A DNA stretch of 64,000 nt from Escherichia coli (GCF_041248615.1 NZ_CP158427.1); one strand, 5' to 3'. Positions 57,001-63,000 are shown, numbered from the stretch's first letter. Made by a program: the numbers.

Positions 57001-60000
57001 TTTTTTAGAGGAGAGAATTTTTTATCCATGCATACATTTTACTTCTCTGCATTAATGTCTGCAATATGTTACTTTATTGATGATAATTATTATTCAATAT
57101 CCGATAAGATAAAAAGGAGAGCATATGAGAACTCTGACTCTAAATGAGTCAGACCGGAGATATCCACTTTAGACTGAGATGCGTCAGAGGAACCCAGATA
57201 AATAGTGTCATCACCAGTACCGGTACCGGTACCGGTACTCACAGCCCCGCTGTATTTGCCGCCACTGAGGAATACCTTTTCTTGATTCTTTACGGTGGTA
57301 CGTAAGTACTCCATTTTCGTACAGGCTCTCTTCCGCTTCCTCGTCGATTCGCTCACTACGTTCGGTCATCGATTTGCGGCGAGCAGTGCCACCTTTCGCA
57401 TATCATTGACGATCCCGATTTGAGCCAGAGAGCTGAGGTCTAATGGAGCGGAATCGTACGAGAGTGAATCAATTGTATGATATATAAATATTCTAATTGG
57501 TATAGAAAATGCTATTTAAAATATTTTTTATCTAAAAACGACATTTAACGGACAGTTTTGTCTGGTAATCGATTTTTCCGACGTTTATTTTTTTGCTAAC
57601 TGTACGTTTTCGTATGGTTAGCCCCCTGTCCCCATCTACCGAGTGGAAGTTCTGGGTACACGCTCGTAAGCGGCATATGTTGGTGACATATACGTAGTAA
57701 TGACAAGGTGATAAATGGCACAGGTTAATACGCGTTTAAGAATCGACGCTGAACTGAAGGATGCTTTTATGGCCGTTGTAAAAGCATGGGCCGTAGCGGC
57801 TCTTAATTAATCCGGAAATAAGTGATCTATAAGGCACTGTTGCAAAGTTAGCGATGAGGCAGCCTTTTGTCTTATTCAAAGGCCTTACATTTCAAAAACT
57901 CTGCTTACCAGGCGCATTTCGCCCAGGGGATCACCATAATAAAATGCTGAGGCCTGGCCTTTGCGTAGTGCACGCATCACCTCAATACCTTTGATGGTGG
58001 CGTAAGCCGTCTTCATGGATTTAAATCCCAGCGTGGCGTTGATTATCCGTTTCAGTTTGCCATGATCGCATTCAATCACGTTGTTCCGGTACTTAATCTG
58101 TCGGTGTTCAACGTCAGACGGGCACCGGCCTTCGCGTTTGAGCAGAGCAAGCGCGCGACCATAGGCGGGCGCTTTATCCGTGTTGATGAATCGTGGGATC
58201 TGCCACTTCTTCACGTTGTTGAGGATTTTACCCAGAAACCGGTATGCAGCTTTGCTGTTACGACGGGAGGAGAGATAAAAATCGACAGTGCGGCCCCGGC
58301 TGTCGACGGCCCGGTACAGATACGCCCAGCGGCCATTGACCTTCACGTAGGTTTCATCCATGTGCCACGGGCAAAGATCGGAAGGGTTACGCCAGTACCA
58401 GCGCAGCCGTTTTTCCATTTCAGGCGCATAACGCTGAACCCAGCGGTAAATCGTGGAGTGATCGACATTCACTCCGCGTTCAGCCAGCATCTCCTGCAGC
58501 TCACGGTAACTGATGCCGTATTTGCAGTACCAGCGTACGGCCCACAGAATGATGTCACGCTGAAAATGCCGGCCTTTGAATGGGTTCATGTGCAGCTCCA
58601 TCAGCAAAAGGGGATGATAAGTTTATCACCACCGACTATTTGCAACAGTGCCAACACGGGCACCACTACGGAGTTACCGAACTGCCTGTACGACTGAGTG
58701 TCTGACACAGGAATGCGAAAAGGCCTGCCATCTACTTTTTCAAAACCCATAAGGCGCGCGCACTCTCGTGGAGTCAGCCTGCGGGGCCGATGCGCCTGAT
58801 TTTCTTCGTTCGCGAAGTCTGTTTCACCTGTGGCCATATCCCAGCCACGGTCTATCAGAATTTCAGACCCGTCTTTGTGATAGCGAGCAGAAAGCGTACG
58901 GGCAATGCTTTCTTTATTTTCAGGATTAACGAGGCCAAAACCGAATCCGTTACCCTTAGCTGCGTGCTTTTTGGCGTAGTTATAGAGATACTCCCAGAGT
59001 TTCGGCGTCAGTATATATTTGCTGTCAACCACGGGTTCCAGCAGTTCGCCAAATGACGGACGCTGTTCCGGATAAAAACGACTAATATCGCGCAGGGTAA
59101 AGCCCTGGTGAATGTTCAGATCACGACGGAAACCGACCAAAACGATACGTTCTCGGTGCTGAGGTAAAAAGTGCTTTCCGTCGATAACTTTAGGATCGTT
59201 TTTGCCCATCTCAGCTGCATCCGCAACTTCATAGCCCAGTTCGTCGAGGGTATCCATGATGACTTTAAAGGTTTTACCCTTGTCATGGCTCTTCAGGTTT
59301 TTAACGTTTTCAAGAACAAAGATGGCAGGTTTTTTTGCGCGTATAATACGCGCCACATCGAAGAAAAGCGTTCCCTGAGCCTCACATTCGAAACCATGCG
59401 CGCGCCCGAGCGAGTTTTTCTTGCTTACGCCCGCAAGGCTGAACGGTTGACAGGGGAAACCTGCTAGAAGTACATCATGATCCGGCACATGCTCATTAAT
59501 GTAAGCATAGGCATCGTTTTCAGGTACTTCAGGTTTATCACTGAGCGTGACTTCCCGAATATCGAGATTGAAAGTGTGTTCCTGAGCATCGTTAAACCAG
59601 TTAGCTTTATATGTGCGCACAGCCTCTTTATTCCATTCACTGGTAAAAACGCACTGGCCACCGATGGTTTCGAAGCCCTTCCGTATACCTCCAATCCCAG
59701 CAAACAGGTCAATAAACCGGAAGGCATAGTCAGGGTGATGTGCAGGCGCTTCCGGAAGCATTTTTCGTAGAAGTTCCTCTTCGGCTAACGTCAGCGTCTT
59801 AGGTGAGCACTTACCATTAATCCAGCGATTAAGAGTCTCGCGACTCCACTCATTTTTACCAACTTTTCTAAGCAGTTCAGCCACGTACTTCTGGTCATAG
59901 ATTTCCAGCACCTGCCCGAGCAGCTTTTTATAATTTTCCTGTCGCAGTTGTTCTTCCGCTTCTGCTTTCTCAAGCAGATCCTGCGCCAGTAATTCAAATT

Positions 60001-63000
60001 CAGACATATTGCCTCCATTGGGTCTTATGGGTGAAACTGTATCACTCATTTGACCCAGATTGAATGTTTTTATCTGGATATTTAAACAGGTTTATTGTTA
60101 GGTAACGCACGTTGGCCACGCTGGAGCGTCTTCTGGGCCTGCTGTCGGCCTTTGAGGTCGTGGTATGGATGACGGATGGCTGGCCGCTGTATGAATCCCG
60201 CCTGAAGGGAAAGCTGCACGTTATCAGCAAGCGTTACACTCAGCGCATTGAGCGACATAACCTGAATCTGAGACAACATCTGGCAAGGCTGGGACGGAAG
60301 TCACTGTCGTTCTCAAAATCGGTGGAGCTGCATGACAAGGTCATCGGGCATTATCTGAACATAAAACACTATCAGTAAGTTGGAGTCATTACCGGTTCTC
60401 TTTGTCTTTTAGTGATTCTATAAACCTCATTACGTCTGAATATAAAAATCTATTATTTGATTTATGTGGCTCATGAGGTTGTGGGATGGTCTTGTTTTTG
60501 AATGTGCCAGTTTTCTTAATGGCAAAGATTAATTCACCTTCTGTTATTCCTAACATTTCAGCAAATGTTTTTGCTTCTATAGTTACTGACTTCATTTAAT
60601 TAACTCTCATGGTATCGATTTTCTTTACCGGCATCTTTAACAATGGTGCTCGTTTCTAGTGTTGCTGCGGTACGCTTCATCATCGTCTGCGGGGCGGTTG
60701 CGATAGTGAAGGAGCTGCCGGGCGTGAGCAAATCTATCAGGCGCTGGCCGCTGATAATCTCCATCCGTTCACTGGCAATACTGACAGATTTTGAACCTGC
60801 GCCGGTTTTCCCGGTATGGCAAAACAGACCGCGACAGTTATGACGTTTAAGCAACTTCTCGAACTCCTGTACGTGCTGTAAAGCAATATGGCCGCGATAG
60901 CGTTTAGCCTGAATAAGATAGCGATATTTTCCTATTATTACCTGGCCGTCAATGCCTCCATCGCCGGTATAGCGTTTGTTTCTGATGGTTCTGAAGCCAT
61001 GCGCGGCTTTGTTGAATAAATCGAACTTTTGCTGAGTTGAAGGATCAGATCACGCATCTTCCCGACAACGCAGACCGTTCCGTGGCAAAGCAAAAGTTCA
61101 AAATCACCAACTGGCCCACCTACAATAAAGCCCTCATCAACCGTGGCTCCATAACTTTCTGGCTGGATGATGAAGCTATTCAGGCCTGGTATGAGTCGGC
61201 AACGCCTTCATCACGGGGAAGACCTCAGCGCTATTCTGATCTCGCCATCACCACCGTTCTGGTCATTAAACGCGTGTTCAGGCTGACCCTGCGGGCTGCA
61301 CAGGGTTTTATTGATTCCATTTTTACACTGATGAATGTTCCGTTGCGCTGCCCGGATTACACCAGTGTCAGCAAGCGCGCAAAGTCGGTTAATGTCAGTT
61401 TCAAAACGTTCACCCGGGGTGAAATCGCGCATCTGGTGATTGATTCCACCGGGCTGAAGGTCTTTGGTGAAGGCGAATGGAAAGTCAAAAAACACGGCAA
61501 AGAACGCCGTCGTATATGGCGAAAGTTGCATCTGGCCGTTGACAGCAACACACATGAAATCATCTGTGCAGACCTGTCGCTGAACAATGTGACGGACTCA
61601 GAAGCCTTCCCGGGTCTTATCCGGCAGACTCACAGAAAAATCAGGGCAGCATCGGCAGACGGCGCTTACGACACCCGGCTCTGTCACGATGAACTGCGGC
61701 GTAAGAAAATCAGCGCGCTTATCCCGCCCCGAAAAGGCGCGGGTTACTGGCCCGGTGAATATGCAGACCGTAACCGTGCTGTTGCGAATCAGCGGCTGAC
61801 CGGGAGTAATGCGCGGTGGAAATGGACAACAGATTATAACCGTCGCTCGATAGCGGAAACGGCGATGTACCGGGTAAAACAGCTGTTCGGAGGTTCACTG
61901 ACACTGCGTGACTACGATGGTCAGGTTGCAGAGGCTATGGCCCTGGTACGAGCGCTGAACAAAATGACGAAAGCAGGTATGCCTGAAAGCGTGCGTATTG
62001 CCTGAAAACACAACCCGCTACGGGGGAGACTTACCCGAAATCTGATTTATTCAACAAAGCCGCCATGCGCTTCAAATCCTTCCAGCAACAGTTCTTCAAA
62101 CACAAAAGGATCAATTTTCCTCAGGTAGTTAATTTTTTGTGGGAAGCCCGGCAACGTCTTTATGCGCTCCAGCACCCGCCGCGCACTTTGCTGCTTCCTT
62201 TTGTGTCGTCGGTTGCGTACTGAACGCCGGAAGAATACAACGGCAAACAGTGCGATGGCGCTGCAAGCCCATAGAATAAGGTTTTCTGTAGTGGGGAAGG
62301 GGAACATGGTGATAGTGTGCTTTCTGTGGGTAAAGAAAAGGGCGGTTAAACCGCCCTGGTGTTTAGCGACGGCTGTAAACCTGCCACGAAGCGCTGCCTG
62401 ACTGATTTTGGCAAATCCGCCCGTAAAGTACGGTGCCGGTCGAGTAGCGGGCGCCATTCAGATAGCAATAGCCGCTGGATTGCAGCAGTTCGTTGCGCAG
62501 CTTTTCTTCCTGCTTTGATAGCCGGGACTCCGCAGACTGCAAACGAACGGATAATTCGTTAATCTGGCGTTGCTGGTTATTCATCTGGCTCTGCATCGCA
62601 TTACCTTTATCTTGGCTGACGCAACCAGTTAAGAGAGCTGTACAGGCTAATGCACTTAATATAATTTTTTTCACGTTGGCTCCTTAAATTGAGATTATTC
62701 CTAGCCCGCCTATAAGCGAACTTTCCCGTATTTACTTATGATCTGGCTTATCATCGACTGGTTACTTCCACCTTCGCCATTATCCGGGCATTCATTAAGA
62801 AAAGCCTTCCTGGCATCCCTCGTGTGGTTGGGTAAAAAGCCGTGCTTGTTCTTTTTAACGATATTGAAGAAAGCAGCTTCAGCACTGTTACACTCGCTTC
62901 CGCCGCTATCGCCGGTGAGCTTGCCCGCCATGCACATAATAACTTTGCAGGGATCTTCAGCATGGCTGGCAGGAAGATAAAGCAGACTACCAGCTGCTAT

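Follow-up and report, generated by a model that had tools for sequence, protein, structure and literature searches.

A 3'-truncated EcoRII methylase gene fused to IS26 on an IncF plasmid of Escherichia coli, probably a crippled and redundant remnant

The window analysed here, a 64,000-nucleotide stretch of Escherichia coli plasmid DNA, holds a cytosine methyltransferase reading frame that runs into the end of an IS26 copy, which raises the question of where this gene came from and whether its product can still methylate DNA. Our reading, which we hold to be likely, is that it is a 3'-truncated ecoRIIM, the methylase gene of the EcoRII restriction-modification system of IncN plasmids, that the truncation is of IS26 origin, and that the product is probably crippled and redundant. 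The ecoRIIM gene of IncN plasmids is itself already well known.

Reading frame and identity of the truncated gene

On the minus strand, an ORF of 482 codons at 58601..60049 runs through the end of IS26, as the initial annotation had described, although translation more likely starts at the ATG at 60007 (MSEFELL), the start given in RefSeq and Swiss-Prot, with a GGAGG lying 4 nt ahead of it. Inspection of the bases upstream of the ATG at 60049 showed no Shine-Dalgarno sequence. With the probable start at 60007 the protein is 468 amino acids long and the gene therefore occupies 468 codons, while the 14 in-frame codons before it are probably an untranslated leader. The coding parts, motifs and upstream elements are as follows.

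58601..60007, minus strand: truncated ecoRIIM coding sequence, 468 codons plus stop (RefSeq WP_316527547.1)
58653..60007, minus strand: native ecoRIIM part, codons 1-451 and two bases of codon 452, 100% identical to the intact p14408_2 gene
58601..58652, minus strand: IS26-derived tail (IS26 positions 1-52), comprising the last base of hybrid codon 452, codons 453-468 and the TGA stop
60008..60049, minus strand: upstream in-frame 14 codons, counted as coding in the initial annotation and holding the GGAGG at 60012..60016
60008..60100, minus strand: native leader and promoter region, the same as in intact IncN plasmids
60101..60395, plus strand: IS1 remnant (3' part of insB and terminal repeat), a fixed part of the IncN backbone upstream of ecoRIIM
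59687..59704, minus strand: motif I FAGIGG (F102-G107), part of the SAM-binding loop, invariant columns
59447..59455, minus strand: motif IV PCQ (P185-C186-Q187) with the catalytic cysteine, invariant columns
59303..59311, minus strand: motif VI ENV (E233-N234-V235), invariant columns
58655..58684, minus strand: retained part of motif X (Q442-V451), where a helix begins that is cut after V451

Residues 1-451 of the protein are thus native M.EcoRII and residues 452-468 are specified by IS26; the boundary at 58652 and the 17-residue foreign tail had been placed exactly by the initial annotation, the first foreign codon (452) being a hybrid of two native bases (TT) and one IS26 base (G). Upstream, the IS1 fragment was considered as a second, plasmid-specific truncation, of the promoter, and was ruled out as it is contiguous in all intact IncN plasmids examined.

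The ORF protein matched Pfam DNA_methylase (PF00145) over residues 110-466 of 482 (E=1.2e-76) and DNA_meth_N (PF18284; E=8e-27), scored 910 bits with NCBIfam PRK10458 and 375 bits with TIGR00675, and matched the PDB Dcm homologue 3ME5 at E=2e-207. The Pfam and PRK10458 matches lie far outside what chance would give. In a 68-sequence alignment F102, G104, G106, G107, P185, C186, Q187, E233, N234 and V235 all fall on invariant columns, and by sequence the PF00145 match together with motifs I, IV and VI makes this a C5-cytosine methyltransferase. Catalytic motifs I-IX, the GNSV core of motif X, the DNA_meth_N domain and the TRD are all intact. The FxGxGG, PCQ and ENV motifs and that at 442-451, reported earlier, are therefore real and lie on invariant family columns; the statement that all conserved motifs are present holds for I, IV and VI but not for motif X, which is only half retained, with its helix cut after 3 residues. 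The chimera consequently lacks a complete motif X and C-terminal helix, and the profile matches end early, at model position 315 of 324 (Pfam) and 446 of 472 (PRK10458).

The intact IncN protein, the modification enzyme of the type IIP/IIE EcoRII system, is Swiss-Prot MTE2_ECOLX (P05101), to which residues 1-451 of the chimera are identical except for D26Y, a change also present in the p14408_2 copy, with which the DNA agrees at 100%. The locus has the same upstream DNA and IncN neighbours as M.EcoRII (the IS1 remnant, a small ORF, a Mrr_cat gene and TrbM/KikA) and all its catalytic motifs. In pDS2, plasmid 9 and p14408_2, ecoRIIR is convergent with ecoRIIM at a distance of 34 bp, whereas here IS26 stands in its place, the IncN match starting at 58653, and ecoRIIR, the M-R intergenic hairpin (CTCCCGG..CCGGGAG) and the last 26 M codons are missing; 17 IS26-encoded residues and an IncF replicon are found instead.

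Chromosomal Dcm (E. coli/Shigella; structures 3ME5 and 3LX6), whose gene overlaps the vsr gene for very-short-patch repair, has the same DNA_meth_N plus DNA_methylase architecture, ~70% nucleotide identity and, according to the literature, a common CCWGG specificity (PMC3874152), but it retains the conserved C-terminal helix that the truncated M.EcoRII lacks. The description 'Dcm-like' is thus correct for the Dcm/CCWGG family and too general for this gene, which is specifically the M.EcoRII of an IncN restriction-modification pair: a plasmid paralogue, not an orthologue of chromosomal dcm (~70% nucleotide identity, against 100% to plasmid ecoRIIM). The same figures rule out a generic Dcm that has lost its vsr, as does the native downstream gene, which is ecoRIIR. 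No vsr lies at the 3' end, as had been noted, and none is expected; IS26 is downstream here and ecoRIIR in the intact IncN locus, and since ecoRIIR was removed by the same IS26 event, it is the absence of ecoRIIR that is relevant. M.EcoRII is specific for CCWGG, a target it has in common with Dcm, which blunts killing by EcoRII (PMC3874152), and we assume the same target for the truncated enzyme because the sequence it retains, target-recognition region included, is that of M.EcoRII. To call the gene a third methyltransferase is fair, given that RefSeq has two others in the window, at 1..671 and 6396..6959.

IS26 and the captured IncN block

The window is a 100% match to p14408_1 (LT599826), an IncF plasmid of E. 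coli NRZ14408, which resides together with the IncN plasmid p14408_2. At the junction the following features are found.

57833..58652, minus strand: IS26, 820 bp, with 14-bp terminal inverted repeats GGCACTGTTGCAAA at both ends
57885..58589, minus strand: tnp26, the single gene of IS26, co-directional with ecoRIIM
57825..57832, no strand: IncF-side 8-mer ATCTATAA, whose reverse complement flanks another IS26 (record 100676-101495)
58653..64000, no strand: IncN backbone segment with 0 mismatches to p14408_2 81363..86710

This copy is 100% identical to three others in the plasmid and is labelled in RefSeq as IS6-like element IS26 family transposase, which identifies it as IS26 of the IS6 family. 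No 8-bp duplication surrounds it (left ATCTATAA, right AACACGGG), and this, together with the loss of the 3' end of M and the entire R, rules out simple insertion into ecoRIIM. The 8-mers flanking the IS26 copies form two reverse-complement pairs, TTATAGAT/ATCTATAA and GCCATGGG/CCCATGGC, with the 8-bp overlap CCCATGGC located in IS6100. The target-site duplication on either side of the captured, IncN-derived block is ATCTATAA.

Past the window the IncN segment continues via IncN T4SS genes to blaKPC-2. Positions 1..29998 of p14408_1 are 99.96% identical to 56712..86710 of p14408_2 and further segments match too, giving a block of ~40 kb with at least 99.96% identity to the co-resident plasmid, in the order mph(A), IS6100, class 1 integron, blaKPC-2, IncN T4SS genes and, at the edge, truncated ecoRIIM. 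After undoing a later IS26 inversion, the block lies between two IS26 copies with a common 8-bp target duplication. Several related IncF plasmids match as far as the distal IS26 end and diverge beyond it, and therefore an IS26 was resident at this site. We infer an order of events from this end state: the resident IS26, at the boundary of the IncF resistance region, would have entered the ecoRIIM gene of the IncN plasmid by replicative transposition, or else a cointegrate of an equivalent kind would have been followed by an IS26-adjacent deletion, and resolution would then have dropped the IncN replicon and ecoRIIR. Mechanistically this does not differ from IS26 pseudo-compound transposons and cointegrate-derived resistance regions, which likewise show a precise IS26 terminus at a truncated gene, no target duplication locally but one of 8 bp around the entire block, and a second IS26 event that inverted part of it; particular to this case is the clipping of a restriction-modification methylase with complete removal of the toxic R half. 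The IS26-ecoRIIM junction was found in one of 72,556 plasmids and one of 5,426 E. coli genomes, and the exact chimeric protein on 2 contigs only.

IS26 is a classic source of assembly misjoins, and the IncF and IncN plasmids could have been wrongly joined through this repeat with no truncated methylase in the cell. Both records of the isolate are flagged linear and have ~36 kb of near-identical sequence in common, with 11 small gaps typical of long-read errors. A repeat misjoin, however, has no way of newly fusing the final base of IS26 to a codon inside ecoRIIM, and M-R is uninterrupted in p14408_2. The flanking 8-mers form the two self-consistent reverse-complement pairs that real IS26 transposition and inversion predict, arr-3 runs on into catB3 without a break across the ends of p14408_1, just as in p14408_2, and the same protein with the same neighbours occurs on a second contig of 147,848 bp. 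We therefore regard an artefact as extremely improbable.

Loss of the C-terminal helix and probable loss of activity

The initial annotation had proposed that the enzyme may still be active as only the extreme C-terminus is replaced. The lost part is, however, a conserved helix: none of the 101 diverse relatives has fewer than 14 residues after motif X (median 28), compared with 4 native residues in the chimera, and the lost 26 residues, 16 of them conserved, constitute most of the 28-residue helix running on from motif X. At the conserved positions +8, +9 and +12 after motif X the chimera now has L, Q and G. On a position-specific scoring matrix the native tail scored +16.2 bits and the IS26 tail -20.7, compared with -16.1 +/- 6.7 for random tails and -5.4 for the worst relative; with a score under the random mean, chance mimicry of the lost amphipathic helix by the IS26 tail is ruled out. 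AF2 models of the intact protein showed a helix at 449-476 with pLDDT of 95-98, while in the chimera the helix was confined to 449-456, with pLDDT falling to 73 and then 53. This short helix includes the IS26-encoded L-A-L-L-Q, and in the model some C-terminal packing might survive through it.

Published descriptions of C5-methyltransferases make the C-terminal helix a hydrophobic element packed into the large domain and place motif X along the SAM site. The structurally characterised M.HhaI and M.MpeI have a motif X that lines up directly with QFGNSVV (M.HhaI QFGNSVVINVLQYIA against M.EcoRII), and their helix is said to fold back onto this domain, although these, unlike the chimera, are full-length enzymes. 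By analogy, the lost helix would have packed onto the Rossmann-like large domain and helped to form the SAM pocket. We know of no active natural or engineered C5-methyltransferase variant that ends 4 residues past GNSV. The presence of the helix in all relatives, the random-like IS26 tail and the collapse of AF2 confidence together suggest, from sequence and model, that the chimeric enzyme is probably catalytically dead or unstable.

We also considered that the chimera could remain an active orphan CCWGG methyltransferase, methylating plasmid or host DNA and shielding the IncF plasmid from EcoRII-type restriction in new hosts. It retains motifs I, IV and VI, the GNSV core, an unchanged N-terminal domain, the short 449-456 helix in AF2 and an upstream region the same as that of functional IncN copies, and the structure of C5-methyltransferases is notably plastic, as active circular permutants and complementation between fragments show (PMC5944983). 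Complete M copies are also found in 2,009 plasmids compared with complete R in 1,880, so that M is repeatedly kept where R is not intact. Weighed against these are the helix that none of the 101 relatives lacks, the substitutions at +8, +9 and +12, the below-random tail score, the fall in pLDDT, the described role of the helix and of motif X at the SAM site, and a singleton junction, which gives no sign of selection; on balance we consider residual activity unlikely.

A role independent of methyl transfer is a further alternative, whether by read-through into tnp26, as a DNA-binding regulator or dominant-negative EcoRII partner, or by C-to-U deamination at CCWGG. The truncated ecoRIIM stop lies 11 nt 5' of the tnp26 ATG, directly upstream of the tnp26 GGAG, both genes run in the same direction and the native hairpin is lost, so with the terminator gone transcription and translation could feed into tnp26; the DNA_meth_N domain and TRD remain intact, M.EcoRII reportedly represses its own promoter (Som and Friedman 1994, cited in PMC3874152), and C5-methyltransferases starved of SAM can deaminate cytosine. 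All of these roles are, however, wholly conjectural, nothing about the singleton junction points to selection, and an unstable protein would do none of the proposed jobs. A scan of 58400..60700 likewise found no consensus sigma-70 promoter, a null result that is uninformative because the native promoter region there is unchanged. We judge such roles very unlikely, and grant as little probability to their more specific version, in which a clipped M.EcoRII would fold and bind CCWGG with a damaged SAM pocket, acting as a deaminating mutator or as a dominant-negative partner or auto-repressor that tips the balance of M to R in the intact system of the same cell, while read-through into tnp26 would separately raise IS26 activity.

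Redundancy and meaning of the remnant

Whatever its activity, the chimeric methylase is redundant in its host, as the same isolate carries an intact EcoRII restriction-modification pair on p14408_2 and 99% of E. coli genomes (5,366 of 5,426) have a dcm-like gene. The protection of plasmid DNA suggested in the initial annotation would add nothing to these. Owing to this redundancy, truncated ecoRIIM is best read as a passenger remnant, left behind by IS26 activity of an ordinary kind, and not as a function under selection.

In itself the feature matters little. In textbook fashion, IS26 clipped the gene next to it when a blaKPC-2 block passed from an IncN plasmid to an IncF plasmid inside a single clinical isolate, and the remnant displays the expected asymmetry in the decay of a restriction-modification pair, in which the toxic R is wholly gone and most of the harmless M persists. 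The IS26-ecoRIIM junction is also a unique marker with which to track this plasmid lineage. Annotation pipelines call the remnant 'DNA cytosine methyltransferase' without flagging the truncation, and inventories of methylomes and defence systems may therefore over-count active methylases.

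Identity of the gene and its junction with IS26

The ORF listing of the window places a 482-codon ORF on the minus strand at 58601..60049, and in the raw sequence the end of IS26 at 58652 lies inside this ORF, with the reading frame running across it. Codon-by-codon inspection, using the numbering of the 468-residue protein from ATG 60007, showed that the last native residue is V451 and that codon 452 is a native/IS26 hybrid (TT/G), after which IS26 positions 2-52 supply 16 more codons and a TGA stop. The coordinates, IS26 boundary and tail sequence reported in the initial annotation were thus all correct. 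The start codon is probably the ATG at 60007 (MSEFELL); it is preceded by GGAGG and used by both RefSeq and Swiss-Prot, and no ribosome-binding site was found upstream of ATG 60049.

Features of the window around the truncated gene and in the IncF leading region
57833..58652, IS26, 820 bp, bounded by GGCACTGTTGCAAA inverted repeats
58589..58603, TGA stop of the chimera, 11 nt upstream of the co-directional ATG of tnp26 (the IS26 transposase gene) and just before GGAG
60101..60395, IS1 remnant (3' part of insB and terminal repeat), ~93 bp upstream of the start of the truncated gene
61005..62061 (+), IS903B-like element of the IS5 family, 1,057 bp, with a 9-bp overlap at its ends
1..671, 'DNA methylase' WP_000085883.1 (RefSeq), cut by the window start, IncF leading region
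6396..6959, 'class I SAM-dependent methyltransferase' WP_001311069.1 (RefSeq), IncF leading region

Matches to Pfam DNA_methylase (E=1.2e-76), to DNA_meth_N, the N-terminal domain of Dcm-type enzymes (E=8e-27), and to NCBIfam PRK10458 (910 bits) uphold the earlier description of a Dcm-like methyltransferase as far as family is concerned, but the protein is more specifically M.EcoRII. Swiss-Prot MTE2_ECOLX is identical to the intact IncN protein, and over residues 1-451 the window copy differs from it only by D26Y. M.EcoRII, whose final 26 residues are absent here, is also the closest known entity. The ecoRIIM DNA is found at ≥99% identity in ~1,900 public plasmids, mostly IncN-related, and in the annotated IncN plasmids pDS2 and 'plasmid 9' the same gene is the EcoRII methyltransferase, convergent with the EcoRII endonuclease gene (ecoRIIR; 404 aa). 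The initial annotation had remarked that no vsr gene follows; the neighbour whose absence matters is ecoRIIR, and a Dcm-Vsr reading was rejected. The window copy retains the profile and catalytic motifs of the C5-methyltransferase family and lacks a complete motif X and the C-terminal helix, and it does not belong to an EcoRII restriction-modification system because the endonuclease gene is absent. The feature is of an already known kind: a gene remnant, annotated in RefSeq and truncated by IS26, on a clinical plasmid published earlier.

The junction with IS26 is unique: searches of 72,556 plasmids and of 5,426 complete E. coli genomes gave one match each, in both cases the source record. The IS26 end with ~16 more bases (58653..58668) also matches numerous unrelated plasmids at ~97.6% identity, where a fragment annotated as 'methyl-accepting chemotaxis protein' adjoins the similar stretch; the alignments were probably extended by chance.

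The C-terminal tail and predicted activity

The initial annotation took only the extreme C-terminus to be replaced, but the evidence speaks against this. The lost segment, FEAVA(K/R)..., is kept in all close relatives, with variation confined to the last ~10 residues, and Dcm carries a 16-residue counterpart in its place. Among 101 diverse relatives with motif X (Q.GN[SA]V; 50%-identity representatives), all 101 have at least 14 residues after this motif (median 28), against four native residues after GNSV in the window copy. Counting from motif X, positions +5 (V/I/F), +8 (I/V), +9 (A/G, 90/101) and +12 (M/I/L/V, 97/101) are strongly conserved; their counterparts in the chimera are L, L, Q and G, respectively. 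In position-specific scoring over +5..+14, the native tail reached +16.2 bits, compared with -20.7 bits for the IS26 tail, -16.1 ± 6.7 for random sequence and -5.4 for the worst natural relative. AF2 modelled a 28-residue helix (449-476) in the intact protein, with pLDDT of 98 and 95 to about residue 470, while in the chimera the helix stops at 456 and pLDDT drops to 73, then 53. Motif X forms the SAM site together with motifs I, II and III, and a chain break in motif X inactivated M.MpeI (PMC5944983). Taken with the conservation, tail length, tail score and AF2 models, this indicates that the chimeric enzyme is probably inactive or unstable. Residual or full activity appears unlikely, although the preservation of every other motif and of the expression signals gives it some weight.

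Proposed origin of the remnant from a co-resident IncN plasmid

The window is 100% identical to p14408_1 (NZ_LT599826.1; IncFIA/FIB/FII; 137,186 bp) of E. coli NRZ14408, an isolate whose IncN plasmid p14408_2 (LT599827) carries the intact ecoRIIM-ecoRIIR pair, and window 58653..64000 aligns with p14408_2 81363..86710 with 0 mismatches. Both plasmids were rebuilt and compared, revealing three shared segments.

Segments shared by p14408_1 and p14408_2 (99.96-100% identity)
p14408_1 1..29998, p14408_2 56712..86710
p14408_1 131039..137186, p14408_2 50564..56711
p14408_1 97348..101495, p14408_2 50571..46424

On the IncF side, the IS26 adjoining the methylase gene is flanked by TTATAGAT, with the reverse complement ATCTATAA at another IS26 copy, while GCCATGGG and CCCATGGC at two further copies represent an 8-bp overlap inside IS6100, which was split by a later IS26 inversion. 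Undoing this inversion reconstructs TTATAGAT-IS26-[~40 kb IncN-derived block]-IS26-TTATAGAT, with the block ordered mph(A), IS6100, integron, blaKPC-2, IncN T4SS genes and truncated ecoRIIM. The ~40 kb of IncN DNA duplicated on the IncF plasmid, between IS26 copies with a common 8-bp target duplication, carries blaKPC-2, blaTEM-1, blaOXA-1, aac(6')-Ib-cr, mph(A) and half of the IncN T4SS genes.

In several related IncF plasmids the match extends to the far end of this IS26, beyond which they diverge, indicating that the element was already resident at the IncF site. In the most economical history, whose order of steps is inferred, this resident IS26 would have targeted the ecoRIIM gene of the IncN plasmid and formed a cointegrate, from which resolution or deletion then removed ecoRIIR, the 3' end of ecoRIIM and the IncN replicon; the outcome would be the same had an equivalent cointegrate undergone a deletion next to IS26. 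Either way, the mechanism is standard IS26 biology. The junction could instead be an artefact of assembly, but this is unlikely, as a misjoin cannot invent a junction of IS26 with an internal codon, the 8-mers flanking IS26 are self-consistent, and the same protein is present on a second contig (147,848 bp) with the same neighbours. Four IS26 copies in the p14408_1 record (29999, 94351, 96528 and 130219; WP_001067858.1) are mutually identical; 3 nt separate them from the mph(A)-adjoining copy (WP_001067855.1) and 4 nt from the one within the IncN-derived block (copies compared: record 100676 and 3681), which suggests that it was the IncF-resident variant that acted in the rearrangements.

Neighbouring genes, redundancy and significance

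On the IncN backbone ecoRIIM adjoins a Mrr_cat-domain 'restriction endonuclease' gene (~60600..62457, minus strand), which is interrupted by the IS903B-like element; this insertion is also in p14408_2 and absent from plasmid 9. The IS1 remnant belongs to IncN backbones as a constant feature and does not mark a recent event, and the two IncF leading-region methyltransferase genes lie near an antirestriction gene, psiB and ssb. At the window locus the native terminator hairpin between ecoRIIM and ecoRIIR (CTCCCGG..CCGGGAG) is deleted; together with the closeness of the chimera's stop to tnp26, this makes it conceivable, speculatively, that ecoRIIM transcription, and perhaps translation, continues into tnp26 by read-through or translational coupling.

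Near-complete copies in public plasmids number 2,009 for ecoRIIM and 1,880 for ecoRIIR, which fits the general rule that the endonuclease is lost more readily than the methyltransferase. The window copy is redundant whatever its activity, because p14408_2 carries a complete EcoRII system and a dcm-like gene is present in 5,366 of 5,426 complete E. coli genomes. Dcm has the same target as EcoRII, CCWGG, and blunts EcoRII post-segregational killing (PMC3874152). The whole window holds 169 CCWGG sites against 142 ± 10.7 expected from shuffles, so the plasmid is not depleted of EcoRII sites and relies on CCWGG methylation where R.EcoRII is encoded in the same cell. The remnant is chiefly of use as a warning for methylase inventories and, through its junction, as a lineage marker.
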